From contig JBEGVQ010000167.1 of assembly GCA_041178345.1 (NCBI GenBank), forward strand, positions 8,986 to 72,985: DNA of 64,000 nt, given 5' to 3'. Position numbers and translations under genes: made by a program. Shown here one piece after another: positions 665-61,942 of this stretch. This DNA is from Acidobacteriota bacterium (lineage in GTDB: Bacteria > Acidobacteriota > Vicinamibacteria > Vicinamibacterales > UBA2999). The notes under the pieces were generated by a model. The model was given only the letters and a program-made list of their open reading frames with translations, was not told the DNA's origin and searched no databases. The number at the start of each line of letters is the position of its first letter. The first letter of the stretch is position 1.

Positions 665-703
665 AGACAGCCACAGATTGGTCGCAGATTAGACGGATTC
701 CAC
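665..703. repeat. AGACAGCCACAGATT / CAGATTAG-type short repeat cluster (family F4)
   Basis: agacagccacagattggtcgcagattagacggattcc. The same core recurs at 6282-6425 in both orientations. Confidence 0.8.
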
Positions 704-731
704 CGACCGAAACGTGGGCTAGAATGGCCGC

Positions 732-1898
732 ATGTTGGAGGGGATCATGCCCGAGTGTTCCAGGCGGTCGATGGCCGCCGTCGTCCTCATCGTGTTCGCG
801 GGTGTCGCCACCGCCGTGTTCCCGGCAGGTGCGCAGACGCCGGCGGCAAAGCCGACTGCGACCAAGGGCAAGCCCTGGGTGGTGCCGCGCACGGCCGACG
901 GCAAGCCAGACCTGCAGGGGAACTGGACCAACGAGACGCAAACGCCCCTCGAGCGCATGGGCGCCGGCGGCACGACGCTGACCGATCAGCAGGCCGCGGC
1001 GATCGAAGATCGCGCGCAACTGGTCGAAGAGATCCGCGACCAGCCGAGCGATCCCAATCGTGGCGCGCCGCCGAAGGGCGGGGGTAGCGGCGGGTTCTCG
1101 GCGCCGGGCCAGCAATCGTTCATCGAGATCATCTCCGAGGCCGCCGGCGGCGCGGTGGGCGGCTACAACGGCTTCTGGCTCGACCCGGGCCTGAACGTGA
1201 TTCGCATCGATGGCGTCGCGCGCAGCTCGATCATCATCGATCCGCCGAACGGCCGGGTGCCGGCGCTGACCGATGCCGGCAAGAAGCGGCTGGCCGAGAT
1301 CGGCGCGCGCGCCCGGAAGTTCGGCGAGTTCGATCACCCCGAGATGCGGCCGCTGGCGGATCGCTGCCTGGTGTCGTTCGGCTCGAACGCCGGGCCGCCC
1401 ATGCTGCCGAATTACTTCTACAACAACAACTACACCATCGTGCAGACCAAGGATCACGTGATGATCCTCTCGGAGATGAACCACGACGCGCGCATCATCC
1501 GCCTGAACGCGAAAGATGCCCTGCCGGACGCCATTCGTCCGTGGTTCGGCGAATCGGCCGGCCGGTGGGAAGGCGACACCCTGGTCGTCGAGACCACGAA
1601 GATCAACCCGATGCAGCTGGCGCAGAACAGCATCCTGTGGGCATATCGCGGCGCGTCGGAGAAGCTCAAGGTTACCGAGCGCTTCACGCGCACCGGCCCG
1701 GACACCATCGTCTATCGCTTCACGATGGAAGACCCCGACACGTTCACCGCGCCGTTCACCGGCGAGCTGCCGTTCAACCGCATCGACGAGATGGTCTACG
1801 AGTACGCGTGCCACGAGGGCAACCACGCGATGGAGAACATCCTCTCCGGGGAGCGCTCGAGGGAACGGCAGTCAGCAGAGGCGAAGAAGCCGCAGTAG
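732..1898 (+). CDS. secreted conserved hypothetical protein
   Basis: 388-aa ORF with a signal-like N-terminus (MAAVVLIVFAGVATAVFPAGAQ). Codon third positions are GC-rich. I recognise no family. The start could be 732, 747 or 771. Confidence 0.65.
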   Translation: MLEGIMPECSRRSMAAVVLIVFAGVATAVFPAGAQTPAAKPTATKGKPWVVPRTADGKPDLQGNWTNETQTPLERMGAGGTTLTDQQAAAIEDRAQLVEEIRDQPSDPNRGAPPKGGGSGGFSAPGQQSFIEIISEAAGGAVGGYNGFWLDPGLNVIRIDGVARSSIIIDPPNGRVPALTDAGKKRLAEIGARARKFGEFDHPEMRPLADRCLVSFGSNAGPPMLPNYFYNNNYTIVQTKDHVMILSEMNHDARIIRLNAKDALPDAIRPWFGESAGRWEGDTLVVETTKINPMQLAQNSILWAYRGASEKLKVTERFTRTGPDTIVYRFTMEDPDTFTAPFTGELPFNRIDEMVYEYACHEGNHAMENILSGERSRERQSAEAKKPQ

Positions 1899-1922
1899 GC
1901 GGCGCGCCAGGCCTCGCCCGTC

Positions 1923-2303
1923 CTAGAAGCCTTCGATGAGCACGAACTGCGCCGTCGCGGCGCCCTCGCGGAGTTTCCTGGCGGCCACGTAGCCCGGGGA
2001 GTTGAAGAACTCCTGGGCTCGTTCGAAACTGGGGAACTCGATGATCACGACGCGGCTGGGCGCCGCGGGGCCTTCGAGCGTGGCGGTGCGGCCGCCGCGG
2101 GCGATGAAGTGTCCGCCGGCCTTCTCGATCAGCGCCGGCGTCAGCTTCGCGTACTCCGCGTACTGCTGCGGATTGGTAACCTCCACCTGCGCGATGATGT
2201 AGCCCTTCTTGCCGGTGCCTTGAAAGGCTCCCGCGCCTGCGATCGCGACAGTAGCGAACACGATCGCGAGTGCGAACTTCATCTTCGTCATCACCATCCC
2301 CAA
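1923..2303 (-). CDS. DUF1330 domain protein with signal peptide
   Basis: 126 aa. GYIIAQVEVTNPQQYAEYAKL...VVIIEFPSFERAQEFFNSPGY matches the DUF1330 pattern. Confidence 0.75.
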   Translation of the reverse strand: MGMVMTKMKFALAIVFATVAIAGAGAFQGTGKKGYIIAQVEVTNPQQYAEYAKLTPALIEKAGGHFIARGGRTATLEGPAAPSRVVIIEFPSFERAQEFFNSPGYVAARKLREGAATAQFVLIEGF

Positions 2304-2351
2304 TCTGTTGCTTCTTCATTAGTTCCGCACTCTGGCACGAGGGCGGGGCGC

Positions 2352-3587: not shown

Positions 3588-3607
3588 CAGGGTAGATTTT
3601 ATGCGAT

Positions 3608-5438: not shown

Positions 5439-6281
5439 TTACTTCTTTAGCCGTGAAGCCCACTCCTTGAGCGACGTGGGCTTCACGCCGTACTTCGACG
5501 CATTCCCGGCAATGTCGGCGTCGTAACCGACGGCCTCGAACCACTCCAGCATCAGCGCGAAGTCGTCGCTATTCTTGCGGATCTCGCTCATCGGGATCTG
5601 CCGGTACTCGATCGTGCGGCCGAGCGCGCCGCTCAGGATCGCGGCGGTCTGCGGCATGGTGGCCGCATCGCCGGCAATGTCGAGCTCGAGGTTCCTGAAG
5701 CGCTCGTCGGTGAACGCGAGCGCGCCGTACTGGCCGATGTCGCTCACGGCAATCATCTGGAGGACCGTCTTCGGGTCGAGCGCGCTCACCAGCTTGTCGC
5801 CGTTCAGGAACCACGGGCTGGGCAGGTTCTCCATGAAGAACACCGGCCGAATGATGGCGTAGGAGGTGAACCCGAGGCTGCGCACCGTGTCTTCGACGCG
5901 AGACTTGTTGTCGAAGTGGGGAATGCCGGTCTTGCGATCGGCCGACGCCACCGACGCATACACGAAGTGCTGCACGCCGGCCGCGCGCGCGGCCTTGGCG
6001 AAGCGGTGCCCCTGTGCTTCTTCACCTGCTACGCCAGCGGTCCAGGTGTTCTGCACGGCATAGGCGCCCCAGGCATCCGCCAGCGCCGCCTTCAGCGACC
6101 CTTCATCGTCCAGGTCGCCCTTGACGAGCTCGGCGCCGGTGGCGGCCAATGCCTTGGCCGCGTCGCTGTCGGGATTGCGCGTAAGCGCGCGGATTTGGAA
6201 ACCCTTGCCGGCCAGAGCGCGGGCCGTCGCGCCGCCCTGCTGGCCAGTGGCGCCGGAGATGAGCACGATGCGATTCGTCAT
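5439..6281 (-). CDS. NmrA-family NAD(P)-binding protein
   Basis: MTNRIVLISGATGQQGGATARAL is a Rossmann motif. The ATG at 6281 is preferred over the GTG at 6287. Confidence 0.85.
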   Translation of the reverse strand: MTNRIVLISGATGQQGGATARALAGKGFQIRALTRNPDSDAAKALAATGAELVKGDLDDEGSLKAALADAWGAYAVQNTWTAGVAGEEAQGHRFAKAARAAGVQHFVYASVASADRKTGIPHFDNKSRVEDTVRSLGFTSYAIIRPVFFMENLPSPWFLNGDKLVSALDPKTVLQMIAVSDIGQYGALAFTDERFRNLELDIAGDAATMPQTAAILSGALGRTIEYRQIPMSEIRKNSDDFALMLEWFEAVGYDADIAGNASKYGVKPTSLKEWASRLKK

Positions 6282-6425
6282 GGCCACAGATTAGCGCAGA
6301 TTCAAGACAGCCACCGATTAGACACCGATTCGACACGGATGCGAGTTCGCTGGCTCAATAATCTGTGTTTCATCGGTGCCTAATCCGTGGCTGTCTGATC
6401 TCCTAATCCGTGGCTCGAATGGCTG
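6282..6425. repeat. inverted cluster of AGCCAC[AC]GATTAG units (family F4)
   Basis: The left arm (6282-6340) carries gccacagattag, agacagccaccgattag and caccgattcg. The right arm (6355-6425) carries the reverse complements ctaatccgtggctgtct and ctaatccgtggct. Confidence 0.85.
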
Positions 6426-6739
6426 TGCTGGGCGAGATGCCGGCGGCACGCCATGCCGGGATGAAGGCTGCTGCCAGTGAGGCGATCCCCAGCAGCCCGG
6501 CGGCCGTGGCCAGCGTGGCCACGGCGAACGGGCGGACCTGGAACATGGCCATTGGCACGTAGAGTTGCTCGCCGGCCGCCTCGGCGCCGGCCGAGGGCGA
6601 GCACGCTAATGGCGGTGAGCGTAAAGCCTGGATGGCGAAGCAGGAGCCGAAGGCTGTAGCGAAGATCTTGCAGCATGCTGCCCGAAGTAGACGGCTTTGC
6701 GGCTTGCTGAGCTCTTAGAATCGGCGTTATCTGCGTCAT
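6403..6739 (-). pseudogene. internally deleted ADOP/MacB-FtsX-type permease remnant
   Basis: The N-terminal 50 aa (MLQDLRYSLRLLLRHPGFTLTAISVLALG) match the start of ADOP permeases. After a frame change, the hand-translated C-terminus ...LLGIASLAAAFIPAWRAAGISPSTAIRATD* matches the last TM and tail of the same family. The roughly 700-aa middle is missing. Confidence 0.7.
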
Positions 6740-6763
6740 CTTCGGCCCTTGAACATCTGTGGC

Positions 6764-6820
6764 TTGACTTTCGCTTTTTATTCGCTACAATGACAAAAGT
6801 TAAGCGAATAGAGGTGAAAT
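6764..6820 (+). promoter_or_regulatory. sigma70-like promoter, 8-bp inverted repeat operator and SD for imuA
   Basis: TTGACT (6764-6769), 16-nt spacer, TACAAT (6786-6791). TATTCGCT (6779-6786) and AGCGAATA (6803-6810) form a perfect inverted repeat spanning the -10 box and the start site. GAGGTGA lies at 6811-6817. Confidence 0.6.
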
Positions 6821-7645
6821 ATGGCCGTCCGCGCCACCGTAGAAGCCCTGCTCCGAGAGCGAAACCTCGACCGAACCCTCACCTCTGCCATTCCCGAACG
6901 CCTGGGGGAAGACGCGGTCTCGCCGCTGGACGTCGAGGCCCTTGATCGCGGACTCGCCGGTGGCTTGCCGCGCGGGCAGGTGTCTGAAGTGGTGGGACCG
7001 GCTTCGTCTGGTCGTACGGGACTGGTGTGGGCCGCGTTGGCGGCGGCGACCCGCCGTGGCGAAACCGTGGCCCTGATCGACACCTTCGATCGCTTCGACC
7101 CGCCGACGGCAGCGGCCTGCGGCCTCGTGCTGCCGCGCCTGCTGTGGGTGCGTGGCCAGGCGGTATCGAAAACCGCGGTGGCCATCGACCCGGCCTGGCT
7201 CCCGGGCGTGCGCGCGGTCAACGGCCCCGGCACGTTCGTCGAGCGGGTGATCGATCGCGCGATTAAGTCGCTGAATTTGGTCGTCCAGTCGGGCGTGTGC
7301 ACGCTGGTCGCGATCGACCTGATCGACGTGCCGGCGCAGGCGCTGCGCCGGTTGCCGGCCTCCACCTGGTTCCGCATCGAACGCGCCATTGAAGGCCGCG
7401 ACACGGCGGTCGTCATTCTCGCCGCTCAGCCGGTGGCTCGCAGTAGCGGCGGCCGATCGATCGCGATGGGAACCGACTCCCGTGTTTCGACTCCCGACTC
7501 CCGACTCCCGACTCCCGTCTGGAAAGGCGGCCACGATCGCACGCGCCGCCTGGGTGGTGTTCGCTCTGGCGCGGCCGTCTCGGCCGCCCGCTGGTTGCAC
7601 GCCCAGCCAGTCGCTGTTCACACCCGTTTCGTGCCCGCGGTGTAA
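6821..7645 (+). CDS. imuA: ImuA (RecA/SulA-like subunit of the mutagenesis cassette)
   Basis: 274 aa. LDRGLAGGLPRGQVSEVVGPASSGRTGL is the ImuA P-loop-like motif. The gene sits directly upstream of imuB and dnaE2. Confidence 0.75.
   Translation: MAVRATVEALLRERNLDRTLTSAIPERLGEDAVSPLDVEALDRGLAGGLPRGQVSEVVGPASSGRTGLVWAALAAATRRGETVALIDTFDRFDPPTAAACGLVLPRLLWVRGQAVSKTAVAIDPAWLPGVRAVNGPGTFVERVIDRAIKSLNLVVQSGVCTLVAIDLIDVPAQALRRLPASTWFRIERAIEGRDTAVVILAAQPVARSSGGRSIAMGTDSRVSTPDSRLPTPVWKGGHDRTRRLGGVRSGAAVSAARWLHAQPVAVHTRFVPAV
7474..7522. repeat. CGACTCC heptamer tandem tract inside imuA (family F1, minus orientation)
   Basis: cgactcc cgtgttt then 4 perfect cgactcc units (7488-7515) then cgtctgg. Encodes ...DSRVSTPDSRLPTPV. 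Confidence 0.9.
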
Positions 7646-7647
7646 CC

Positions 7648-8961
7648 GTGTTTGCGGCACTCGTTGCTCAGTCGATTCCGGCGGCGGCCACCGTCGCGGT
7701 GGCGCGCGCCTTTACGCCCCGCTTCGAGCAGGTCGGCCCGCTCGTCCTGCTCGATGCCGGCGGCCTGTCGCGCTTGTTCGGCAACGCGCAGGAACTGGGC
7801 ACGCACCTGAGCGAGGCGCTGGCGAAGCACGGCCCCGGCACGTCAGCCCCCAGGGTCGCCATTGCCGCCACGCAGACGGCCGCGGCACTTCTGGCGCTGG
7901 GCCGTCCGGGTCTGACGGTGGTCGAGCCGGGCCACGAAGAGAAAGCGCTCGCATCGCTCAGCATCAGCGTGCTGGACCGCTACGAGAAGCTCAGGGATGC
8001 GTCCCTGAACCGCCATCTCGAGATCCTCTCCAAGTGGGGCATTCGCACGGTAGGTGCCTTTGCCGCGCTGGCGGGCCCAGACGTCTTCGAACGCCTGGGC
8101 GATCGCGGCCTGCAGTGGCAGGCGCTGGCGCGCGGGGTGGAGGTGCGGCCGCTGGTGCCGTGGGTGGACGAAGTGCCGTTCGAAGCCGCCCTCGAACTGG
8201 AATGGCCGATCGAAGGTCTCGAGCCGCTGTCGTTCGTGCTGGCGCGCTTGTTCGAGCCGTTGTCGGAACGGTTGGAGCAGGCCGACCGCGGCGCCGCCAC
8301 GATCTACACCTCGCTGCGCCTCACCACCAAGCGGGTGCACTCGCGCACGCTGCCACTGCCGTCGCCCATGCGCGATGCCAAGACGCTGCGCACGCTGGTG
8401 CTGCTCGATCTCGAAACGCACCCGCCCGATGCACCGATCGACACGGTGCGCGTGTGCATTGAGCCGACCCCGGGCCGCGTGCTGCAGTGGACGTTGCTCG
8501 AACGCGCGCAGCCGGCGCCCGAGCAGGTGTCCACGCTGGTCGCGCGGCTGGGCGCGCTCATGGGCGACACGCATGTCGGCTCGCCGCGACTGGTGGACAC
8601 CTGGAAACCAGGCGCGTTCGAAATGACGGCGTTCCAGGTGCTGGAGTGCTCAAGTGCTGAGGTGCTGAAGTGCGATGCGCAAGACTTGTCGAATGCCCTG
8701 CGCCGATTTCGGTTTCCCGTCCCCACGCGCGTCACCGTGCAGGAAGGCCGCCCCATTCGCGTGGCCACCGATCGCCAGGGTTTCTCGAGCGGCGCCATCG
8801 TCCAGTCCGCGGGACCGTGGCGCACCTCGGGCGAGTGGTGGCAGGAAGGGCAGGCATGGGATCGCGACGAGTGGGACGTGGCCATGGCCGACGGCACTAT
8901 CTATCGACTAGTCGTTGAACGCGGTGTCGGCCAGTGGTTCTTAGAGGGGATCGTGGATTAG
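7648..8961 (+). CDS. imuB: ImuB (Y-family-polymerase-like, inactive scaffold)
   Basis: 437 aa. GTG start 3 nt after the imuA stop. Called from its position between imuA and dnaE2 and an N-terminus of ImuB type (LVLLDAGGLSRLFG). Confidence 0.7.
   Translation: MFAALVAQSIPAAATVAVARAFTPRFEQVGPLVLLDAGGLSRLFGNAQELGTHLSEALAKHGPGTSAPRVAIAATQTAAALLALGRPGLTVVEPGHEEKALASLSISVLDRYEKLRDASLNRHLEILSKWGIRTVGAFAALAGPDVFERLGDRGLQWQALARGVEVRPLVPWVDEVPFEAALELEWPIEGLEPLSFVLARLFEPLSERLEQADRGAATIYTSLRLTTKRVHSRTLPLPSPMRDAKTLRTLVLLDLETHPPDAPIDTVRVCIEPTPGRVLQWTLLERAQPAPEQVSTLVARLGALMGDTHVGSPRLVDTWKPGAFEMTAFQVLECSSAEVLKCDAQDLSNALRRFRFPVPTRVTVQEGRPIRVATDRQGFSSGAIVQSAGPWRTSGEWWQEGQAWDRDEWDVAMADGTIYRLVVERGVGQWFLEGIVD
8637..8676. 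repeat. GGTGCTGR octamer tandem tract inside imuB (family F2)
   Basis: ggtgctgg agtgctca agtgctga ggtgctga agtgcgat. Encodes VLECSSAEVLKCD. Confidence 0.9.
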
Positions 8962-8978
8962 AGGACTCGGAGAGTTTG

Positions 8979-9087
8979 GCCACAGAGGCCACAGAGGACA
9001 CCGAGGAATATTTTCGAACTGTCACCTTATTCGGAAGTGTCGCTGCGCCTTTTTATAGAAATTGGTTGTCTCTGTGTCCTCTGTGGC
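8979..9087. repeat. 9-mer tandem (GCCACAGAG) and matching inverted copy flanking the imuB-dnaE2 spacer (family F5)
   Basis: gccacagag gccacagag gacaccgag at 8979-9005. Reverse complement ctctgtgtcctctgtggc at 9070-9087 matches 17 of 18 nt and overlaps the first dnaE2 codons. Confidence 0.9.
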
Positions 9088-12000
9088 TTACATCGAACTG
9101 CATACGTCCTCTGCTTTTAGTTTTCTGCGTGCGGCCTCCACACCGGAAACCCTGATCGAGCGCGCCGCCACGTTGGGTTATCCGGCAGTGGCGCTGCTCG
9201 ATCGCGACGGCGTCTCGGGAGCCCCGCGCTTCCATAAGGCCGCCCTCGCCGCCGGCCTGCGACCGCTGATTGGCGCCGAACTCACCCTCACGGGGAAGTC
9301 AGAAGGGAGAAGTCAGAAGTTAGAAGGGAAGAGGTCTTCTGCTCACTTCTCCCCTCTCACTTCTCACTTTCATCTTCCTGTCCTGGTGGCGTCGCAGGAA
9401 GGGTGGAGAAACCTCTGCCGGCTGCTGTCGCGCATGAAGCTGCGGGCGCCGAAAGGGGAGGGGGCGCTGGCCCTCGATGAACTCGACGGTGTTACGACCG
9501 GGCTCATCGCCATGCCGGGCCGCGCCTTGCTGCGGGCCGAGCGGTACGGGGTCGGCGGCCTGCTGGATCGCATTGTCGGCACGTTTGGCCGCGCCAACAC
9601 GTACGTCGAGTTACAGCGGCACTTGCACCGCGATCAAGAAGACGACAACGACGCGCTGGTGTGCCTGGCCGAGGCGTTTCGCGTGCCGCTCGTGGCCACC
9701 GGCGGCGTGGGCTTTGCCACGCCCGAGGAGCGGCCGTTGCTCGACGTGCTGACGTCGATTCGCGAGCACGTGCCGCTGCACCGGGCCGGCCGCCGCCTGG
9801 CGGCGAATGCCGAGCGCTACTTGAAACCGCCGGCGCAAATGGCGCGGCTGTTCGCGGATCGGCCCGGCGCCATCCACGCGACCCGCGACCTCGCCGATCG
9901 CCTGCAGTTCACGATGACCGATCTGGGCTATCGCTTTCCCCGGTACCCGGTGCCGGACGGCGAGACCGAGATCTCGTTTCTCCGCAAGATCGCCGAAGTG
10001 GGTGCGCGCGATCGCTACCGGCCGTATTACGACCAGGCCCGCGCGCAAGTGGCGCGCGAACTGGACCTGATCGAGAAGCTGCAACTGGCCGGCTACTTCC
10101 TGATCGTGTGGGACATCGTGAACTTCTGCCGCCAGCAGGACATCCTGGTGCAGGGCCGCGGCTCGGCCGCCAACAGCGCCGTCTGCTACAGCCTCGGCAT
10201 CACCGCCGTGGATCCGGTGGCGATGGAGTTGCTGTTCGAGCGCTTCCTGTCGGAGGAGCGCGGCGAGTGGCCCGACATCGATCTCGACCTGCCAAGCGGC
10301 GATCGGCGCGAGCGGGTGATTCAGCACGTCTACCAGAAGTACGGGCAACACGGCGCCGCCATGACCGCCAACGTCATCACCTATCGCGGCAAGAGCGCGG
10401 CACGGGAAGTGGGAAAGGCGCTCGACCTGGACGAGGGGCAGATCGATCGCCTGGCCAAGGTGATGCACCAGTTCGAGTTCATCGATCCCGCCGACACCTT
10501 GTCGAAGAAGCTCGCCGAGGTCGGCATGGCCGGCGACGAGCCGCGCGTGCGCCACTTTGCCGAGCTGTGGCGGCAAATGCAGGACCTGCCGCGTCACCTC
10601 GGCCAGCATTCCGGCGGCATGGTGGTGTGCCAGGGCGACCTGTCGTCGGTGGTGCCGCTCGAGAACGCCAGCATGCCCGGCCGCGTGGTGGTGCAGTGGG
10701 ACAAGGAAGACTGCGCCGACATGGGCATCATCAAGGTGGACTTGTTGGGACTCGGGATGATGGCCGTGCTGCAAGACACCATCCACCTGATTAACAGCCG
10801 GGAGCCGGGAGTCGGGAGTCGGGAGTCGGGTCGGGAGTCGGAGATGAGCCTGGCCACCATTCCCGCGGACGATCCCGAGGTCTACCAGATGCTGTGCGCG
10901 GCCGACACGATTGGCGTGTTCCAGGTCGAGTCGCGGGCGCAGATGGCAACGCTGCCGCGGCTCAAGCCCGAGAAGTTCTACGACCTGGTCGTCGAGGTCG
11001 CGATCATTCGCCCCGGCCCGATCGTCGGGCAGATGGTGCATCCGTACCTGAATCGCCGCGCGGGACGCGAAGCGGTGACGTACGACCATCCGCTGCTCGA
11101 GCCCATCCTCAAGCGCACGCTGGGCGTGCCGTTGTTCCAGGAGCAGTTACTGCGCATGGCCATGGTGGTGGCCAACTTCACCGGCGGGCAGGCCGAGGAC
11201 CTGCGGCGCGCCATGGGCTTCAAGCGCTCCGAGAAGCGCATGCGGCAGCTCGAGGGACTGTTGCGCGACGGCATGGCGAAGAACGGCATCACCGGCGAGG
11301 CCGCCGATCGCATCGTGCTGGCGATCACGTCGTTTGCCTTGTACGGCTTTCCCGAATCGCACGCCGCCAGCTTCGCGCTGCTGGCGTATGCGAGTGCGTA
11401 CTTCAAGCGGCACTACCCGGCGGCGTTCTACGCGGCGCTGCTCAACAACCAGCCGATGGGGTTCTATCATCCCGCCACCCTGGTGAAGGACGCGCAGCGG
11501 CGCGGTGTGCGCTTCAATCCCATCGACGTGCAGGTGTCGGATTGGGACTGCACGGTGGCAACAGATGGCTCGATCCGGCTCGGCCTGCGCTACGTGCGCG
11601 GGTTGCGGGCCGAGGCGGGGCAGGCGATCGCGAGCGTAAAGTCGGAAGTGAAAAGTGAAAAGCCAGAAGGGTGGAGCGAGCGTTGTCCGAAGTGCGGCTG
11701 CGACGATCCGACCATGTTGGAAACCACGCCGCAGGCGTCGCGGTTCTGCAACGTGTGTTCGCACGAGTGGACGGTCGCGCCGCCGCACACGGTCCGCTTC
11801 CGCAGCGTCGATGACCTGGTGCGCCGCGCGGGGCTCCGCCGCGACGAGATGGTGGCCCTGGCCGAGATCGGCGCGCTCAACTCGCTCGGCCATGACCGCC
11901 GCTCGGCCCTGTGGCAGGTCGAACGAGCGGTCCGTCCCGCCGGCAAGCTATTCGAAGAGGGCGGGACGGAGGGCCTCGGTACGGAGGGCCGGGACTTTAG

Positions 12001-12457
12001 TCCCGGCCATACAGTCGATAGTCCGCTGCCCGACATGAACGTCTCCGAACGCCTCATTGCCGACTACTCCGGTACCGGCCTCACTGTCGGCCCGCATCCG
12101 CTGACCTTCCGCCGCCACGAGCTGTCGATGCGCGGCGTGCTGCCGGCCATCGAGTTGCCGAAGGCGCGGGCGGGCCGCCGCGTGCGCACGGCCGGCATGG
12201 TGATCACGCGCCAGCGGCCAGGCACCGCCAAGGGCTTCGTCTTTCTCACCCTCGAAGACGAAACCGGCATCGCCAACATCATCGTCCGGCCCGATCTCTA
12301 CGCTACCGATCGCCTGACTATCATCGAGGCGTCGTTTCTCATGGTCGAGGGCGTGCTGCAGAACCAGGACGGCGTCACCTCGATCAAGGCCGAGCGGGTG
12401 TCGCGGCTGGCCGGCCTGCCCGACAGCGCAGCGATCGATTCGCACGATTTCCACTGA
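9062..12457 (+). CDS. dnaE2: error-prone DNA polymerase DnaE2 (ImuC)
   Basis: 1131 aa. PHP N-terminus YIELHTSSAFSFLRAAS, catalytic core ...ADTIGVFQVESRAQMATLPRLKP...AIIRPGPIVGQMVHPYLNRR, and a C-terminal OB region. The start is ambiguous (TTG 9062, GTG 9074 or GTG 9083). Confidence 0.95.
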   Translation: MVVSVSSVAYIELHTSSAFSFLRAASTPETLIERAATLGYPAVALLDRDGVSGAPRFHKAALAAGLRPLIGAELTLTGKSEGRSQKLEGKRSSAHFSPLTSHFHLPVLVASQEGWRNLCRLLSRMKLRAPKGEGALALDELDGVTTGLIAMPGRALLRAERYGVGGLLDRIVGTFGRANTYVELQRHLHRDQEDDNDALVCLAEAFRVPLVATGGVGFATPEERPLLDVLTSIREHVPLHRAGRRLAANAERYLKPPAQMARLFADRPGAIHATRDLADRLQFTMTDLGYRFPRYPVPDGETEISFLRKIAEVGARDRYRPYYDQARAQVARELDLIEKLQLAGYFLIVWDIVNFCRQQDILVQGRGSAANSAVCYSLGITAVDPVAMELLFERFLSEERGEWPDIDLDLPSGDRRERVIQHVYQKYGQHGAAMTANVITYRGKSAAREVGKALDLDEGQIDRLAKVMHQFEFIDPADTLSKKLAEVGMAGDEPRVRHFAELWRQMQDLPRHLGQHSGGMVVCQGDLSSVVPLENASMPGRVVVQWDKEDCADMGIIKVDLLGLGMMAVLQDTIHLINSREPGVGSRESGRESEMSLATIPADDPEVYQMLCAADTIGVFQVESRAQMATLPRLKPEKFYDLVVEVAIIRPGPIVGQMVHPYLNRRAGREAVTYDHPLLEPILKRTLGVPLFQEQLLRMAMVVANFTGGQAEDLRRAMGFKRSEKRMRQLEGLLRDGMAKNGITGEAADRIVLAITSFALYGFPESHAASFALLAYASAYFKRHYPAAFYAALLNNQPMGFYHPATLVKDAQRRGVRFNPIDVQVSDWDCTVATDGSIRLGLRYVRGLRAEAGQAIASVKSEVKSEKPEGWSERCPKCGCDDPTMLETTPQASRFCNVCSHEWTVAPPHTVRFRSVDDLVRRAGLRRDEMVALAEIGALNSLGHDRRSALWQVERAVRPAGKLFEEGGTEGLGTEGRDFSPGHTVDSPLPDMNVSERLIADYSGTGLTVGPHPLTFRRHELSMRGVLPAIELPKARAGRRVRTAGMVITRQRPGTAKGFVFLTLEDETGIANIIVRPDLYATDRLTIIEASFLMVEGVLQNQDGVTSIKAERVSRLAGLPDSAAIDSHDFH
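9295..9378. repeat. imperfect ~84-bp palindrome of GAAGTNAGAAG units in-frame in dnaE2 (family F3)
   Basis: Left arm gaagtcagaagggagaagtcagaagttagaaggg. Right arm ctcacttctcccctctcacttctcacttt is its approximate reverse complement. Encodes GKSEGRSQKLEGKRSSAHFSPLTSHFH. Confidence 0.9.
10800..10846. repeat. GGGAGTC heptamer tandem tract inside dnaE2 (family F1, plus orientation)
   Basis: gggagcc gggagtc x3 gggtc gggagtc ggagatg. Encodes EPGVGSRESGRESEM. Confidence 0.9.
11636..11671. repeat. GAAGTGAAAAG-type repeat inside dnaE2 (family F3)
   Basis: gtaaagtcggaagtgaaaagtgaaaagccagaaggg. Encodes VKSEVKSEKPEG, immediately 5' of the zinc-ribbon insert. Confidence 0.85.
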
Positions 12458-16079: not shown

Positions 16080-16089
16080 CCTCGGCCTT
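16062..16089. terminator. bidirectional hairpin between convergent SulP and RidA genes
   Basis: AAGGCCGAGGC, ggggta loop, GCCTCGGCCTT (11-bp perfect stem) followed by cttggtgtt. The stem includes the SulP stop codon. Confidence 0.6.
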
Positions 16090-16118
16090 CTTGGTGTTAA
16101 GCCGGCTAAAGCCGGATT

Positions 16119-17306: not shown

Positions 17307-17384
17307 TGTATCATTCCTTGCTACACTGGCTGAACTGGTACGAGCCGTTCACTCATTCGTTCATCGCGACCCAGACACCCACAA

Positions 17385-17807
17385 ATGCCCAAAGCGCCGA
17401 CCCTTCCGAAAGTCCGCCGAAAACGTTCCCAACTCCACGGCTTCGGCGTGTTCGCCCTGGAGCCCATCAATAAGAACAAGCGCATCATCGACTACGCCGG
17501 TGAGTTGATCACCAACAAGCAGAGCGAGAGCCGCGAAGATCGCTACCTGAAGAAGGGTTGCATCTGGGTGTTCCGCGTCAACCGCAACTGGAGCCGCGAC
17601 GCGCACGTCGGCGGCAACGACGCGCGCTTCATCAACCATTCCTGCAAGGGCAATTGCTGGATTGACGTGGACGCCGTGACCAAGACCATCTGGATTCGCG
17701 CCTCGAAGGCCATCGCCAAGGGCGAAGAGCTGACCTACGACTACAATACCGAGGGCGACAAGATCATCCCGTGCCTGTGCCGGCCGGGCTGCAAGACCAA
17801 GCTATGA
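17385..17807 (+). CDS. SET-domain protein lysine methyltransferase with post-SET Cys cluster
   Basis: 140 aa with HGFGVFA, RFINHSCKGNC, ELTYDY and PCLCRPGC motifs. Confidence 0.9.
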   Translation: MPKAPTLPKVRRKRSQLHGFGVFALEPINKNKRIIDYAGELITNKQSESREDRYLKKGCIWVFRVNRNWSRDAHVGGNDARFINHSCKGNCWIDVDAVTKTIWIRASKAIAKGEELTYDYNTEGDKIIPCLCRPGCKTKL

Positions 17808-26246: not shown

Positions 26247-26280
26247 GGTGGTTCTCTGGGTAGAGTGGACCAGTATATTC

Positions 26281-29227: not shown

Positions 29228-29304
<77 letters not shown>

Positions 29305-36530: not shown

Positions 36531-36551
36531 GCACCTGAGGCACCCTGGCTC

Positions 36552-36800
<249 letters not shown>

Positions 36801-48613: not shown

Positions 48614-48720
48614 CGACGGTCCGGCTACAAAGCCGGACGCCACAAACAACCTCAAGCCGGACGCCACCGCCGAGACGGTCATGTGCCGCCGAGCGATCCG
48701 GAACGGCCCGCCTAGCTGGC

Positions 48721-48748
48721 GGGAGTCGGGAGCCGGGAACCGGGAGTC
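48721..48748. repeat. GGGAGYC heptamers (family F1) next to a TCGACTAGTCGA palindrome
   Basis: gggagtc gggagcc gggaacc gggagtc, then the perfect 12-bp palindrome at 48747-48758 that contains the ATPase stop codon. Confidence 0.85.
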
Positions 48749-48750
48749 GA

Positions 48751-49899
48751 CTAGTCGATCTCGATGATGCCCCAGTCCTTGCGATCGCCGGCGCCGGCCG
48801 CGGCCATGGCGTGCGCCGGTTCGGCCTGCGGCAGGCGCGCCATCGCGTACGCCTGCACTTCGCGCGCCACCTCATCCACCGACGGCGGCACCGGGCGGCA
48901 GTGCAGCCGGACCCACAGGCGCATCAGCGGATCCGAGAAGCTGTAGCGCTTCTGCCGCGACCCGATCAGATCCACGTCTTCGAGCCACGACAGGTAGTCC
49001 TTGGTCGAGCCCGGCGTGCGATGCAGCCGGTGGGCGACTTCGGTGAGCGTGAGTGGCTCTTCCTCGGCGAGGATCTCGAGAATCGCCTTCAGTGCGCCGT
49101 AGCCGCGGGCCTTGTGCAGGCGCAGCTCGTAGCGGTGGCCGCACCAGCCGGCCAGCGCGCCCTCGCCGGTGAGCAGCGCCGTCAGCGCGCTGATCGGGTC
49201 GCCGCCGCGGCCGCTCATCGAGGACGCGGCGTCGCCGAGCGCGCGCACGTACGCGGCGCGGCCGTCGGCCAGCGCCTGGATGGTGCGCCCCAGGTAATCG
49301 CGATCGTCGGCCGAGGTATCGCCCATCGGTGGCAGCATCGCCGTGACTTCGGCCGCGCCGAGCGGCGGCAGGTGGATCACTTCAAAGCGTGGGTGCCCGT
49401 CGCGCAGCAGGCGGTGCGCACGCGCGACATAGCGGCTGGTCAGCACGAAGCGGTTCGAGCTGTCCGCCATCGCGTGCAGCATCTCGCGCAGCACGTGGCG
49501 CAGGCCCGGGAAGCTCTCGAACGTGCGCAACTCGAGCACTTCGTCGAACAGGAAAGTGGCGGGCGCGCCATTGCGGGCGCGGGTGCGGCCAATCAAGCTC
49601 AGGGTGCGGTCGAAGGCATCGCGCGCCGACGCGACGGCGTCCTGGGGCGCCGCGGCGGCGGCGCCGTTGAGCGAAAACGGCGAGGCCGCCGCGACCGCCT
49701 GGTGGAAGCGCTCGGGCGTGCTGGCGGCCCGTTCGACGTCCACGTACTGGCACTGGTCGCGGCCCATGCGATCGCCAAGCGCGTGCAACAGCGTGGTGCG
49801 GCCCGAGCCGCACCCGCCGATGACCACCGGAATGCGTGGCGGCGTCGCGTCGAGCGCGGCGAGAACGCGGCGTTCAAGGCCGGCGTGGGGAGCCATCAT
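48751..49899 (-). CDS. P-loop ATPase (archaeal-ATPase/ORC-like) with C-terminal winged-helix region
   Basis: 382 aa. [14 protein letters not shown] is Walker A and FLFDEV is Walker B. The C-terminal [30 protein letters not shown] is wHTH-like. The start overlaps the hutU stop (ATGA). Confidence 0.7.
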
Positions 49900-51659: not shown

Positions 51660-53174
51660 TCAGTTGACAACGATGCCGGTCGCGTGCTCCAGCCTTCCGT
51701 GACGGATCAAGTTCGTGATCGCATCGATGTCGGGTGCCGGCGGCCGGTCATCAACGAGCGTCGGCACCTGCTGTCGCACCGCTGCGTGCGCGCGCATTAA
51801 CGGCTCTGAACTGCAGAGCGGCGCATGCAGGTCAATCGCCTGACACCCGCAGAGTATCTCAATCCCGATGACGTGCGTGACTAGCTGCAAGGCGCGTTCC
51901 GCTTTGAGCGCGGCATGCATGCTCATGCTCACATGATCTTCTTTGTTCGCCGAGGTGGGAATCGTGTCGACCGAGGCGGGATGCGCGAGTGTCTTGATTT
52001 CGGACGTCAGGGCGGCGGCCGTGACCTGTGCGATCATGAAACCGGATTGCAGGCCGCCATGCTGGGTCAGGAACGCCGGCAGGCCGCTCAGCGCGGGATT
52101 AACCAGTCGTTCCGACCGCCGCTCGCTGATGGTCGCAAACTGCGCCAGCGCCATGGCCAGCAAATCGGCGGCCAACGCCAGCGGCGCGCCGTGAAAATTT
52201 CCGCCCGAGACCATGTCACCTTCGGCCGCGAACACCATCGGGTTGTCGGTCGCCGAGTTCATCTCGGTGTGAACGATATGACGGACCCAGGTCAGCGCTT
52301 CCCGCGCCGCGCCATGCACCTGCGGCGTACACCGCATCGAGTAGGCATCCTGGACACGACCGCAATTGACGTGCGATGAGTTGATGCCGCTGCCCGCCAT
52401 CAAGCGCAGCAAGTTGCCCGCGACTGCGCCCTGTCCCGCAAACGGGCGAGCGTCGTGAATGCGCGCCTCGAACGGGTGCATCGAGCCCTTGAGGCCATCG
52501 ATGGACATGGCGGCCGCGAGATCGGCGGCGCGGGCCAGGCGCTCGGCGCCGGCCAGCGCCAGCGCCAGCACCGCGGTCGAGACCTGGGTGCCGTTGATCA
52601 GGGCCAACCCTTCTTTCGGGCCGAGCACCACCGGGGTCAGTCCGGCCGCCGCCAGGGCCGTCGCCCCCGCGACGCGCGCGCCCTCGTCCCAGGTCTCGCC
52701 TTCGCCGACCAGGACCAGCGCCAGGTGCGCCAGTGGCGCCAGATCGCCGCTGGCGCCGACCGACCCGCGCGACGGGACGTGCGGATGCACCCGGCGATTG
52801 AGCAGGGCCAGCAGCGCCTCGAGGGTTTCGATGCGAATACCCGAATAGCCCTTGGCGAGCACGTTGGCGCGCAGCGCCATCGAGGCGCGCACCGCCCGCA
52901 CCGGCAGCGGCGCGTCCACGCCGGCGGCATGGCTGCGCAGCAGGTTCAGTTGCAGCGCGGCGAGGTCGGCCGGTGCGATGCGCGTTTCGGCGAAGTTGCC
53001 GAAGCCGGTGTTCACGCCGTAAACCGCTTCGGTCCCAGCGGCCTTGGCCGCCACCACCGCGCGCGAGGCCGCCACGCGCGCCCGCGCCTCTGGGGCGAGA
53101 CCGACCGCTGCATAGTCGTCGGCAATCGCGAGCAGGTTGTCGAGGGAGAGCGTGGCGCCGTCCAGCAGGATCAT
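51660..53174 (-). CDS. hutH: histidine ammonia-lyase
   Basis: Starts MILLDGATLSL. The MIO-forming motif is GSVGASGDLAPLAHL. The upstream 292 codons of the 796-aa ORF-track entry are antisense to purA and are rejected. Confidence 0.95.
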   Translation of the reverse strand: MILLDGATLSLDNLLAIADDYAAVGLAPEARARVAASRAVVAAKAAGTEAVYGVNTGFGNFAETRIAPADLAALQLNLLRSHAAGVDAPLPVRAVRASMALRANVLAKGYSGIRIETLEALLALLNRRVHPHVPSRGSVGASGDLAPLAHLALVLVGEGETWDEGARVAGATALAAAGLTPVVLGPKEGLALINGTQVSTAVLALALAGAERLARAADLAAAMSIDGLKGSMHPFEARIHDARPFAGQGAVAGNLLRLMAGSGINSSHVNCGRVQDAYSMRCTPQVHGAAREALTWVRHIVHTEMNSATDNPMVFAAEGDMVSGGNFHGAPLALAADLLAMALAQFATISERRSERLVNPALSGLPAFLTQHGGLQSGFMIAQVTAAALTSEIKTLAHPASVDTIPTSANKEDHVSMSMHAALKAERALQLVTHVIGIEILCGCQAIDLHAPLCSSEPLMRAHAAVRQQVPTLVDDRPPAPDIDAITNLIRHGRLEHATGIVVN

Positions 53175-53195
53175 CGAGTCATTAGGATACAGTAG

Positions 53196-55165
<1,970 letters not shown>

Positions 55166-59588: not shown

Positions 59589-59601
59589 CCCCGATCACTC
59601 C

Positions 59602-60903
59602 ATGAGCCCCCTCCGTCGCGCGATCGGCTTGCCCGCGGCCACGGCCCTGGTCGTGGGCACGATCATCGGGTCGGCGATCTTCGTCCAGGCGTCCGAGATC
59701 ACCGCGCTCGTGCCGTCGCCGCCGGCCGTGGTGCTGGCGTGGGCCGTGGCCGGCGCGCTCACGTTGATCGGCGCGCTGGTGTGCGCCGAGCTGGCGTCGG
59801 CCTATCCGCGCACCGGCGGGGTGTACGTCTTCCTGAAGGAGATCTACTCGCCCGTGCTCGGCTTTCTGTGGGGCTGGGCGATGTTCTGGACCATGCACAG
59901 CGGCATTCTGGCCGCGATTGCGACGGTGTTTGCCCGTTACACGGGCTACTTTGTGCCGCTGGACGATGCCGCCACCCGCGGCGTGGCGATTGGCGCCATT
60001 CTCGTCCTGTCGGCCGTCAACTACCTGGGCGTGCGGTTCGGCAGCGGCCTGCAGTCGGCATTCACGGTGGTGAAAGTGGCGGCTGTGATGGCGATCATCG
60101 CCATTGGGTGGGCGCTCAGCGGGCCGCCGGCGGCCGAGGCGGCCGTGGCCCCGGCGGCGGCCGTGACCGCCGGCAACTTCATGCTGGCGGTCGGCGCCGG
60201 TTTGTTCGCCTTTGGTGGCTGGCACATGGTCACCTACACCGCCGAAGAAACCGTCAACCCGACGCGCACCATCCCGCGCTCGCTGCTGATTGGCGTGGTG
60301 GTGGTGACGCTCTGTTACATCGGCCTCAACGCCATCTACCTGCGCGTGCTGTCGGTGGACAAGGTGATCGCTTCGTCTCGCGTGGCGGCCGACACCTTTG
60401 ACGTGCTGATGGGGTCGGGCGGCGGGAGCGTGATCTCGGCGCTGGTCATGTTCAGCGCGTTTGGGGCGCTGAACGGGATCGTCATGGTCGGGCCGCGCGT
60501 GTATTACCAGATGTCGCAGGATGGCTTGTGGTTCAAGTGGGCCGGTCACCTGCATCCGCAGTTCCAGACGCCGGGCCGAGCCATCGTGCTGCAGGCGGTG
60601 TGGTCGTCGGCGCTGGTGCTCACCGGCACCTATCGCGCGTTGTTCACCCGCGTGATCTACACCGAGTGGATCTTCTTCGCGCTGCTGGCGCTCGGCGTGG
60701 TGCTGCTGCGGCGACGGCCGGGCTACCAGCCGGCGTGGCGCATGCCGCTCGTCCCGCTGGCGCCGGTCCTGTTCGTGCTGGCCTCGGCGGCGATCGTGTT
60801 CAACCAGGTGCGCGCCGATCTCACCAGCAGTGCCATCGGGTTGGCGATTGTCGCCTCTGGCATCCCCGCGTATTATCTGTGGACTCGCCGGGCAAGCCCG
60901 TGA
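59602..60903 (+). CDS. APC-family amino acid permease
   Basis: 433 aa, 12 TM. VVGTIIGSAIFV...AELASAYPRTGGVYVF. Confidence 0.85.
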   Translation: MSPLRRAIGLPAATALVVGTIIGSAIFVQASEITALVPSPPAVVLAWAVAGALTLIGALVCAELASAYPRTGGVYVFLKEIYSPVLGFLWGWAMFWTMHSGILAAIATVFARYTGYFVPLDDAATRGVAIGAILVLSAVNYLGVRFGSGLQSAFTVVKVAAVMAIIAIGWALSGPPAAEAAVAPAAAVTAGNFMLAVGAGLFAFGGWHMVTYTAEETVNPTRTIPRSLLIGVVVVTLCYIGLNAIYLRVLSVDKVIASSRVAADTFDVLMGSGGGSVISALVMFSAFGALNGIVMVGPRVYYQMSQDGLWFKWAGHLHPQFQTPGRAIVLQAVWSSALVLTGTYRALFTRVIYTEWIFFALLALGVVLLRRRPGYQPAWRMPLVPLAPVLFVLASAAIVFNQVRADLTSSAIGLAIVASGIPAYYLWTRRASP

Positions 60904-60932
60904 ACCCGTGAACCCGTGAACCTTTGAACCCG
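60893..60932. repeat. GTGAACCC octamer tandem tract bridging two genes (family F6)
   Basis: gcaagccc gtgaaccc gtgaaccc gtgaacct ttgaaccc. It carries the permease TGA and ends 2 nt before the next ATG. Confidence 0.9.
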
Positions 60933-60934
60933 TC

Positions 60935-61909
60935 ATGAAAATCGACTTCCACAACCACTACTACCCGCCGGAGTATCTGGCCGCGGTCAAGAAGGGCCCC
61001 ACGAAAGTCCGCATGGACTTCGACGCCGACGGCAACCCGCGCCTGCATTATCCGGGCGACTACAACATCCTGGTGCCGGGGCATCGTGACCTCGACTACC
61101 GCGAGGGCGTGCTGAAGAAACACGGCGTCGACAAGCAGGTGATCACGTTCACCACGCCGGGCACGCACTTCGAGGAGCCGGCGACCGCGGTCCAGATGGC
61201 CAGGCACGTGAACGATGCCTTTGCCGCCGCCGTCAAGCAGCGCCAGCACTTCCTGTCGCTTGCCACGTTGCCCTTGAACGACCCGGCGGCGTCGGTCATC
61301 GAGCTCGAGCGCGCCATGGCCACCCTTGGCCTGCCGGGCGCGATGGTCTTCAGCAACGTGAACGGCGTGGCGCTGGCCGACAAGGTCTACGAACCGCTCT
61401 GGCAGAAGGCCAACGACCTGAACGCGGTGATCTACATTCATCCGGCGCATCCGCTGGGGGTGGAGGCGATGGAGCAGTACTGGCTGATGCCGCTCGTGGG
61501 GTTCCTGATGGACACCACGCTGGCCGCCGCGCACCTGGTGTTCGCCGGCGTGCCGGAGCGGTACCCGAAGATCAAGTGGGTGCTGTGCCACATGGGCGGG
61601 GCGGTGCCGTACCTGGCGGAGCGGTTCGATCGCGGCTACGAGGCGTTCGCCGAATGCCGCGCCCACATCAGCCGCGCGCCGAGCACGTACTTGAAGCAGT
61701 TCTATTACGACACGGTCAATTTCGATCTCAATAACATCGAACTGGCCATCAAGTTCGCGGGGGCCGATCACATCCTGGCCGGTAGCGACTACCCGCACCA
61801 GATTGGCAGCATTCCGAAGATGTTGGACGCGATCAGCCGCTTGCCGATTTCGCCGGCCGAGCGCGAAGGCATCTACGGGCGCAACGCCACAAACCTACTG
61901 GGGGTCTGA
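60935..61909 (+). CDS. amidohydrolase-2 family (ACMSD-like decarboxylase/hydratase)
   Basis: MKIDFHNHYYPPEYL...IYIHPAHP...GSDYPH are metal-ligand motifs. Confidence 0.85.
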   Translation: MKIDFHNHYYPPEYLAAVKKGPTKVRMDFDADGNPRLHYPGDYNILVPGHRDLDYREGVLKKHGVDKQVITFTTPGTHFEEPATAVQMARHVNDAFAAAVKQRQHFLSLATLPLNDPAASVIELERAMATLGLPGAMVFSNVNGVALADKVYEPLWQKANDLNAVIYIHPAHPLGVEAMEQYWLMPLVGFLMDTTLAAAHLVFAGVPERYPKIKWVLCHMGGAVPYLAERFDRGYEAFAECRAHISRAPSTYLKQFYYDTVNFDLNNIELAIKFAGADHILAGSDYPHQIGSIPKMLDAISRLPISPAEREGIYGRNATNLLGV

Positions 61910-61942
61910 CCCCGAGCAAGAAGTTCCGAGGGGTCTGACCCC
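61901..61942. repeat. two copies of the palindrome GGGGTCTGACCCC, 29 nt apart
   Basis: Copy 1 (61901-61913) contains the amidohydrolase TGA. Copy 2 is at 61930-61942. The AGGAGAA SD and the ATG of the cupin gene follow. Confidence 0.9.

Follow-up and report, generated by a model that had tools for sequence, protein, structure and literature searches.

A 64,000-nucleotide (nt) stretch of an Acidobacteriota genome (contig JBEGVQ010000167.1; hereafter the window) carries, at gene boundaries and inside genes, many arrays of short units repeated head to tail. These arrays are long simple-sequence repeats of the heptamer class, a known but unexplained kind of repeat, met here in a new phylum and crowded into the imuA-imuB-dnaE2 operon of SOS mutagenesis. 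Heptamer repeats have been known from cyanobacteria since 1990 and later from Xanthomonas, Burkholderia and Beggiatoaceae; we know of no accepted origin or function for them. An initial annotation had sorted the arrays of the window into six unit families, F1 to F6, and had proposed a lineage-specific system, with terminators, recombination or slippage hot spots and protein-binding sites as possible roles. We find the repeats to be real, recurrent, non-random and sited at boundaries and linkers, as proposed, but neither lineage-specific nor hypervariable by slippage; nor do their inverted pairs often lie between convergent genes.

Tandem Repeats Finder returned an array at essentially every coordinate that had been read by eye. 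The window has 15 arrays with a period of 7-9 and three or more copies (seven of period 7, five of period 8, three of period 9), where 30 order-3 Markov simulations yielded 1.5 on average and never more than 5; they are thus about ten times commoner than in simulated sequence, and far from random low complexity. Counts of unit dimers, in which GGGAGTC dimers were allowed at most one mismatch, point the same way: 11 matches at four loci for F1 (GGGAGTC; 0.02 expected), 6 at four loci for F2 (GGTGCTGA; 0.02 expected) and 11 at three loci for F3 (GAAGTGA; 0.17 expected), an excess of 50-500 times, while the F4 unit (GCCACAGATTAG) has 8 matches where 2.5 are expected. The same units therefore do recur kilobases apart, and, since both arrays and dimers exceed expectation, they are not a product of oligonucleotide composition. 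In class terms, the window holds tandem arrays of 5-11 nt units above compositional expectation, with heptamers the most abundant. Collapse of repeats at k ~31 during assembly was considered as a source of artefact and rejected: the arrays keep reading frames, recur in independent assemblies, and are found both in finished genomes and in MEGAHIT contigs built at k=141.

Roughly half of the window's arrays lie within predicted genes, in frame (imuA and imuB have one each, dnaE2 has four, and linker regions of a PBP/SpoIID protein have two), and about half touch a gene boundary, which bears out the overlap with start codons, stop codons and linkers that had been described. Three arrays that follow stop codons, at 20053, 26280 and 48720, have their G-rich strand on the sense side. 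Inverted pairs of arrays are found at four places (6305-6396, 8979-9087, 9295-9363 and 20061-20177), where they are among the longest short-range inverted repeats of the window; the pairs first noted are thus genuine, but only one of the four, 20061-20177, lies between convergent genes. Three of them are predicted to form very stable hairpins, with energies between -47 and -81 kcal/mol and z between -5.6 and -8.0. The one within dnaE2, 9295-9363, folds no better than shuffled sequence (z -1.75), and the same is true of the single arrays at 48700-48770 and 36515-36575. The pairs are not followed by T-tracts and the terminator scan called none of them, so that we reject their classification as intrinsic terminators; a canonical hairpin-plus-T terminator is present elsewhere in the window, at 16060-16091.

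Comparison with orthologous loci shows that the sites of the arrays are long-lived while their content turns over, one family being reused at several sites of a genome. Three close loci (L001, L002 and L003) and 80 more acidobacterial dnaE2 loci (L124-L203, whose DnaE2 proteins are 52-71% identical) were compared with the window; the counts over loci given below refer to 84 acidobacterial dnaE2 loci. An alignment of 20 DnaE2 orthologues, of 1061-1191 residues, has hundreds of invariant columns and five sites with low-complexity insertions that differ between lineages; these five loops carry different insertions although the protein is otherwise 80-92% identical. At the loop of the PHP domain, the window and L001 have the GAAGTSA pair, L002 only its left half, and L003 a CGGGAGT/ACTCCCG pair; the loop segment GGCAAGAG is shared although the L003 arms belong to another family, which resembles conversion in place rather than replacement. 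The window and L003 each have one GGGAGTC array at the palm-finger site, L001 has a CCGGGAT/GATCCCG pair there and L002 an in-frame repeat of 18 nt. Neither the window nor L002 has an insertion at the zinc-finger site, which is filled by (CGGGAGT)x4.4 in L003 and by (CAAGCCCT)x4 in L001. At the imuB-dnaE2 junction the window and L001 share the F5 pair, L002 and L003 a GAGATCAG pair, and other loci have other units. The F1 site of imuA is occupied in the opposite orientation (CGGGAGT) in both L001 and L003, and the F4 pair is kept at the same position in L002 and L003. Within 5 kb of L003 the identical 31-nt block (CGGGAGT)4CGG stands at three sites, and other units are likewise reused within one genome in L174, L179, L133 and L135.

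Arrays within genes bear the mark of translation. GAAGTGA repeats place TGA in every frame; within genes the unit is degenerate exactly at that position, and in the intergenic DNA of L124 it is perfect. The degeneracy of stop-forming positions shows that these arrays are translated, as low-complexity linkers, and are under purifying selection, which preserves the frame and purges the positions that would form stops.

Other repeats occupy some of the same loops. In L003 (12430-12510) the DnaE2 HHH site, which holds a GAAGTGA array in the window, has a perfect 19-bp inverted repeat, GACGCCGGGTGTATTTTTC ... GAAAAATACACCCGGCGTC, translated in frame as KTPGVF...EKNTPGVL and present also in the proteins P0008, P0013 and P0014; it is a second type of hairpin insertion in the same permissive loop. 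In L002, imuA (about 8050-8170) and imuB (about 8480-8540) carry in-frame 18-nt repeats encoding EVPSRQ/DVPSRQ, so that the sharing of a family within the operon extends to longer units; dnaE2 of L002 has a different 18-nt repeat (GREGTA).

Across the wider sample the arrays have a preferred length. Many of the 80 further loci carry heptamer arrays whose units are specific to their lineages, among them AACTGAG, AGCCATC, ACACAGAG, AAAGTCC, ACCGAGT and ATCCCGG, and others carry none; the 84 loci together hold 197 arrays of heptamers, 63 of octamers and 65 of nonamers. The lengths of the 193 unique heptamer arrays have a sharp peak at 30-32 nt (about 4.4 units), where 68 of them fall, from 43 unit families; runs of three, four, five and at least six units number 85, 85, 15 and 5. 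The peak is equally strong among arrays with no G3 or C3 tract (54 of 144), and a need to form G-quadruplexes therefore cannot be its general cause. Most often the element is a convergent pair, in which a loop of 0-90 nt separates some 4.4 units from some 4.4 units of their reverse complement. We found no conservation of the loop among copies of pairs, and saw no target duplication at filled junctions. The purine- or G-rich arm stands at the 5' side in 65 pairs against 18, a polarity that is the same whichever strand is read, though these pairs are not phylogenetically independent. Across all loci, G exceeds C in the left arm of 58 pairs and C exceeds G in that of 22, and the same unit can show either polarity at the same site. 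Units containing CTGA or TCAG make up 19 of 94 families, where 5.7 would be expected.

The arrays are also strongly concentrated. In the 45 loci that have 5 kb or more of flanking sequence, imuA-imuB-dnaE2 has 5.3 arrays of period 7-9 per 10 kb and the flanks have 0.90; for heptamer arrays the densities are 3.9 and 0.32, a 12-fold difference, and heptamer density is higher in the operon at 23 loci and lower at three. This excess is absent for periods 3-6 (0.5-fold) and 10-20 (1.7-fold). Preferred places are the imuB-dnaE2 junction, DnaE2 residues 70-100, 570-590 and 830-990, and ImuB residues 100-120, 330-350, about 390 and the C-terminus. The junction itself is either 3-11 nt long or contains a 70-260 nt insertion, which is an array pair, and for 26 of 64 junctions the folding z lies below -3. 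Behind the operon counts stand some ten inherited sites rather than 221 events of independent origin. No heptamer arrays were found in the plasmid dnaE2 genes of Burkholderia glumae, Ralstonia solanacearum or Candidatus Manganitrophus. The concentration could be due to tolerance in a rarely expressed protein, to selection for mRNA structure, or to a mechanistic link with SOS repair.

At the level of strains the arrays appear stable. The alignment of the window to L001 is a mosaic: 15690-23943 (L001 9627-17880) is 99.7% identical over 8.25 kb without a gap, and all four arrays within it are unchanged; the operon is 80-91% identical, and the arrays there differ in unit, number or orientation. 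The juxtaposition of these two levels of identity points to a recent tract of recombination or transfer between otherwise diverged lineages. Contigs spanning the arrays of 8638-9375, from four independent metagenome studies, show no indels, and no frame change coincides with an array in the three genes of the 84 loci. The Logan k=31 contigs end at the perfect F1 arrays (7488-7515 and 10799-10826), so that this assessment concerns the degenerate arrays. Within genes the units are 70-90% identical, a degeneracy that would suppress slippage. Constant unit number at 99.7% identity, gapless contigs and intact frames thus lend no support to the suggestion of slippage hot spots, if these are understood as hypervariable loci, and stability among strains together with the lack of frameshifts argues that the arrays are not phase-variation switches.

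Table 1. Tandem arrays in the window, with positions, strand and setting (dG, folding free energy; z, score against shuffled sequence).
Feature	Positions	Strand	Setting
F4 array AGCCACAGATTGG / TCGCAGATTAG / ACGGATTCC	665-705	+	Between thioesterase stop (gene 219-656) and start of open reading frame (ORF) at 732
F4 left arm, GCCACAGATTAG-type 11-13-mers	6282-6340	+	Found by Tandem Repeats Finder and inverted-repeat search; begins right at ATG of minus-strand NmrA-family gene (5439-6287)
F4 right arm, CTAATCCGTGGCT units	6361-6425	+	Inverted partner of 6282-6340; pair hairpin dG -59.4 kcal/mol, z -8.0
F1 array GACTCCC x6.4	7473-7517	+	In frame in imuA, residues 218-232
F2 array GGTGCTGA x4.5	8638-8673	+	In frame in imuB, residues 331-342, variable loop
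F5 left arm GCCACAGAG x3.2	8978-9006	+	17 nt 3' of imuB stop codon
F5 right arm CTCTGTGKC x2	9070-9087	+	Includes GTG start region of dnaE2; pair occupies whole imuB-dnaE2 junction, hairpin -47.1 kcal/mol, z -5.6
F3 inverted pair GAAGTSA/GAAGGGA x5, 12-19 nt loop, TCACTTC-type x4	9295-9375	+	Translated in frame, loop of DnaE2 PHP domain, residues 78-105; two Tandem Repeats Finder arrays, 9295-9329 and 9339-9375
F1 array CGGGAGT x6.4, one 6-nt unit	10799-10843	+	In frame in DnaE2, between palm/NTPase and finger domains; canonical G-quadruplex motif
F3 array, GAAGTGA-type	11636-11665	+	In frame; interrupts DnaE2 HHH_6 domain match
F2 array, reverse orientation, TCAGCACC x4.9	18594-18632	+	Transpeptidase-SpoIID linker of 760-residue protein (17771-20053)
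9-mer array TGGCACCCN x4.4	19488-19527	+	In frame, residues 573-586 of 760-residue PBP/SpoIID protein
F2 left arm GGTGCTGR x5.6	20053-20097	+	Begins at last base of PBP/SpoIID TAG stop
F2 right arm, CAGCACC-type	20142-20182	+	Overlaps 3' end of convergent minus-strand gene; Tandem Repeats Finder span 20142-20177; pair hairpin dG -81.2 kcal/mol, z -6.2, sequence identical in L001
F3 array GAAGTGA x4.6	25517-25548	+	Alpha-2-macroglobulin signal-peptide region; on minus strand, hydrophobic core of predicted signal peptide of 1565-residue protein (MKLARSLILLTSLFSLLTS... / MKLARSLILLTSLFSLLTSREASAQ...)
F1 array GACTCCY x6.9	26280-26329	+	12 nt downstream of stop of minus-strand gene 26341-26919; also at or before DUF1175 gene start
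9-mer array GGCACCCTA x2.9	36521-36546	+	Over DUF952 stop codon, faces convergent small ORF
F1 array GGGAGYC x3.9, G-quadruplex motif	48720-48746	+	Between RNase III gene and convergent gene 48751-49899
F6 array CCCGTGAA x4.6	60897-60933	+	Amino-acid permease/amidohydrolase boundary; first unit holds permease TGA stop, array ends 1 nt ahead of amidohydrolase ATG

With moderate confidence, we favour an origin of these repeats by slippage and template switching, the products being tolerated at gene ends and in loops and the hairpins being side effects. Replication slippage, acting on the DNA, would give rise to arrays and renew them; units would pass from one array to another through template switching or ectopic gene conversion, and an intramolecular strand switch would yield the inverted partner. 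Arrays would settle at about four units (~31 bp) and survive only where they are tolerated: right after stops, before starts, and in surface loops or linkers. The hairpins of pairs, very stable in the folding models, probably affect transcript stability or 3' ends and, at the imuB-dnaE2 junction, the start of dnaE2 translation. Several observations weigh against this explanation. Slippage predicts lengths that fall monotonically, not a sharp mode at 30-32 nt, and by itself it leaves unexplained both the identical same-phase four-unit blocks at several sites and the 5' position of the purine-rich arm (a polarity whose instances, as noted, share ancestry). The operon excess is 12-fold over flanks that hold fully permissive intergenic DNA, and no event of gene conversion or template switching has been directly observed. 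Metatranscriptome contigs over the region have a depth of about 2 and are strandless, and the one that spans the whole pair at 20053-20182 may reflect read-through or carry-over of DNA. Taken together, a four-unit mode independent of G-tracts, block-like copies, polarity and the hot spot make more active mechanisms possible.

One such mechanism is mobility. The arrays might be non-autonomous hairpin elements, a block of ~31 nt (4.4 heptamers) or a convergent pair being moved in trans by a single-copy enzyme of the RAYT or IS200/IS605 kind, or one of another sort, whose gene would lie elsewhere in the genome, in the manner of REPINs or Rickettsia palindromic elements. The sharp length mode over 43 unit families, the same-phase identical blocks at several sites of one genome and the equal length of the arms of pairs would all follow, as would the filled and empty states of one site among orthologues; in many lineages the insertion lies exactly between the imuB stop and the dnaE2 start, where others have a junction of 3-11 nt, and the lack of visible target duplication is what single-strand Y1 transposases would give. 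Yet single arms are not palindromic and hence offer a Y1 enzyme no hairpin, the loops of different copies are unrelated, and dozens of unrelated units exist per phylum, with several families coexisting in one genome. The change of family by the PHP-site arms around a persisting GGCAAGAG looks like conversion in place, and the Pfam scan of the 39 proteins predicted in the window revealed no transposase-like gene. We consider mobility unlikely. Selection for structures acting in cis, namely G-quadruplexes and RNA or DNA hairpins that serve 3'-end protection, termination, RNase III processing or masking of the ribosome-binding or start region of dnaE2, seems to us improbable to a similar degree; on this view the arrays persist at fixed sites because they have a function. 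Scoring for the G3N1-7 x4 motif found four canonical G-quadruplex motifs in the window, three of which are F1 arrays; related units form G-quadruplexes in vitro (PMC4692102), the hairpins are very stable, the sense-strand G-richness of the arrays after the stops at 20053, 26280 and 48720 recalls the position preference reported by Rehm et al., and structure is kept at the imuB-dnaE2 junction while sequence changes, 26 of 64 junctions being strongly folded. Against this stand a four-unit mode just as strong among the arrays free of G3/C3 tracts, the many lineages with no array at the same sites, the plasmid dnaE2 genes of Burkholderia, Ralstonia and Manganitrophus, which have none, the pairs that lack T-tracts in a genome where canonical terminators are present, and the pair within dnaE2, whose folding (z -1.75) is that of shuffled sequence.

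The concentration in the operon raises another idea: that the arrays are footprints of the ImuA-ImuB-DnaE2 mutasome, or of repair in the SOS state, error-prone synthesis or break repair during SOS writing or renewing heptamer blocks, preferentially at the operon being transcribed and translated at the time. In its general form, a process linked to ImuA-ImuB-DnaE2 repair in the SOS state would write ~31-nt blocks regardless of unit, preferentially at its own operon and often on both 3' ends of a lesion, which would yield convergent pairs. The heptamer densities of operon and flanks (23 loci against three) speak for it, and so does the restriction of the excess to periods other than 3-6 and 10-20; the polarity of pairs fits extension of both 3' ends at a break, and the proposal of Mrazek, Guo and Shah, in the summary available to us, ties the 7-nt period to the footprint of a polymerase. 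But many acidobacterial loci have the operon and no arrays, the proteobacterial and Nitrospirota plasmid dnaE2 genes are free of them, and the counts reduce to some ten inherited sites; a rarely expressed, SOS-repressed protein may have unusually tolerant loops, and no mechanism is known by which the mutasome would act in cis. We regard both the footprint at the operon and the general writing process as very unlikely. Phase variation, in which gain or loss of 7- or 8-nt units would shift a frame or the spacing of a promoter and so switch genes such as those of the mutasome, might be expected from unit lengths that are not multiples of three and from arrays within imuA, imuB and dnaE2 and beside start codons. 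The 84 loci with three genes each yielded no frame change at an array, the contigs of four studies spanning 8638-9375 no indel, and the 8.25 kb at 99.7% identity four unchanged arrays, with in-gene degeneracy a further curb on slippage; a phase-variable contingency locus is accordingly rejected, and we give the idea almost no credence.

The surroundings are unexceptional. By its DnaE2 homologues (best public matches 76-92% identical, the named ones being metagenome-assembled genomes of Vicinamibacterales or Acidobacteriota) the window is Vicinamibacterales-like, and near-identical DNA occurs in drinking-water, freshwater and estuary metagenomes of at least seven studies. It has 67% G+C and an ordinary chromosomal set of genes, including those for a thioesterase, an MFS transporter, an amidase, an NmrA-family protein, a sulfate permease, the PBP/SpoIID protein, alpha-2-macroglobulin, urocanase, histidine ammonia-lyase and RNase III; imuA-imuB-dnaE2 occupies 6821-12457. 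A tRNA-Met gene (anticodon CAT; 29228-29304) is the sole Rfam or ARAGORN match, none of the arrays matching an Rfam family. One assignment of the initial annotation needs revision: the GGCACC array at 36521-36546 exists, but it fits better with the 9-mer array at 19488-19527 (TGGCACCCN) than with F2, where it had been placed.

Upstream of imuA (6720-6800) there are ATCTGYG units akin to F4 and F5. A sigma-70-like promoter (TTGACT, 16 nt, TACAAT) at 6764-6791 overlaps palindromic TTCGC...GCGAA words (TTCGCTTTTTATTCGCTACAATGACAAAAGTTAAGCGAATAG) that are conserved in L001; these words are a candidate, on sequence grounds, for an SOS operator. On the minus strand at 6415-6739 a MacB-type ABC permease gene, intact (840-850 residues) in L002 and L003, survives only as a remnant: it matches L003 at 100% over its first 29 codons and keeps its 3' end, the middle being deleted, and L001 also lacks an intact copy. 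The F4 pair does not mark the junction of this deletion, as both ends of the gene remain and the pair is ancestral. At 61900-61942 two copies of the palindrome GGGGTCTGACCCC, 17 nt apart, overlap the amidohydrolase TGA stop (hairpin dG -31.2 kcal/mol, z -4.3); this element is REP-like or terminator-like, of another kind than the tandem arrays. In the minus-strand ORF 51660-54050 (796 residues) the aromatic amino-acid lyase domain begins at residue 301; probably the annotated start is too far upstream, or else there is an unexplained N-terminal extension.

These results add Acidobacteriota to the hosts of bacterial heptamer repeats; the 15 best-ranked of 111 literature matches included no published description of heptanucleotide tandem repeats in Acidobacteria, and the F1 dimer string had no match in the literature texts searched. 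They also constrain any account of such repeats in three ways: the preference for four units (~31 nt) does not depend on G-tracts, one loop or junction holds different families in different lineages while one genome reuses one family, and the density of heptamer arrays in the SOS mutagenesis operon is some 12 times that of the DNA around it. If the operon excess reflects a mechanism rather than tolerance, the origin of the repeats can be tested with dnaE2 or imuB mutants; were an SOS writing process true, a 35-year-old puzzle would resolve into the footprint of a polymerase or repair system instead of generic slippage. In practice the arrays inflate and diversify conserved proteins and break short-read assembly graphs, a point to heed when metagenomes from soil and freshwater are annotated and binned.

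Among known repeats, CRISPR and REP had been set aside at the outset, rightly. The units of 7-13 nt abut head to tail, and the 23-47 nt repeats with unique spacers of a CRISPR array are not seen. Identity with REP is rejected because no single arm is palindromic; single arrays fold like shuffled sequence and a common end motif is absent. REP/REPIN elements with RAYT do share with the acidobacterial repeats arms of ~30 nt, occurrence as singlets and as hairpin-forming inverted doublets, and persistence at orthologous sites, and Rickettsia palindromic elements share in-frame insertion into protein genes; here, however, the arms are tandem heptamers, in dozens of families with no conserved end motif or internal sequence. 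Unrelated loops between copies and the absence of duplications at filled junctions exclude miniature inverted-repeat transposable elements (MITEs), and no RAYT, transposase or reverse transcriptase domain was detected in the Pfam scan of the 39 predicted proteins, which covers the window only and an incomplete annotation. The cyanobacterial short tandemly repeated repetitive (STRR) heptamers, reportedly described by Mazel and colleagues in 1990, are likewise dispersed tandem heptamers, intergenic and at permissive positions of functional genes, whose role is without explanation; unit sequences and host phylum differ, the likeness being one of architecture.

The claim of lineage specificity falls on the published record, the same architecture having been described in Xanthomonas, Nostoc, Beggiatoaceae and others (PMC4692102, PMC4679880). 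More than 120 stretches of genomes, spread over many phyla, contain (GGGAGTC)x4 without a mismatch, at up to 25 copies, in hosts including Cyanobacteria, Lysobacterales/Xanthomonas, Acidobacteriota, Planctomycetota, Verrucomicrobiota, Gemmatimonadota, Bacteroidota and Chloroflexales. In viral contigs it has one match, against 4, 1 and 7 for three composition-matched heptamers; as the unit is no commoner there than these controls, we claim no special status for GGGAGTC. Long simple-sequence repeats with units of 5-11 nt were surveyed by Mrazek, Guo and Shah (2007), who, as summarised in PMC4679880, ranked heptamers as the most abundant and suggested slippage of the polymerase as the cause. The arrays of that survey, so far as the summary goes, are like ours longer than composition predicts, dominated by heptamers and scattered in phylogeny; recurrent families, paired arms and a 31-nt mode do not figure in the summary, and units that are multiples of three are favoured in genes, where here 7- and 8-mers occur with compensating partial units. 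TAACTGA repeats are common to Beggiatoaceae, Cyanobacteria and Bacteroidetes (MacGregor 2015, PMC4679880). They too lie within a few nucleotides of start codons and involve a unit common to distant phyla with no known mechanism of transfer, and AACTGAG, a common acidobacterial unit, is one base from TAACTGA, the enrichment of CTGA also resembling the Beggiatoaceae repeats; that genome has one dominant unit and one inverted pair, as against many units and many pairs here.

The closest counterparts are the G-rich heptamers of the GGGNATC type, the GGGAATC/GGGANTN repeats of Xanthomonas and GGGGAYT repeats of Nostoc, which have 2-26 units with four clearly preferred, form 70-75 convergent inverted pairs per genome adjoining ORF ends, and vary in length and sequence at the same site among related species, no function having been identified (Rehm et al. 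2015, PMC4692102). For related heptamer units, formation of G-quadruplexes in vitro was demonstrated in the same work. Heptamer units, the four-unit preference (4.4 units in the F1 arrays of L003, 3.9-6.9 in those of the window), convergent pairs, sites after stops or just upstream of ORFs, same-site variation among related species, dispersal over housekeeping genes and a function without explanation are common to those repeats and to the acidobacterial ones, and F1 (GGGAGTC) fits GGGANTN with its G3 tract. F2-F6 do not: several unit families coexist here, mostly free of G-tracts and obeying the same four-unit rule. Whereas 7-11% of the repeats in Xanthomonas are intragenic and ~90% intergenic, about half of the arrays in the window are intragenic and translated, and the acidobacterial repeats differ further in their host phylum and in their strong concentration in imuA-imuB-dnaE2.

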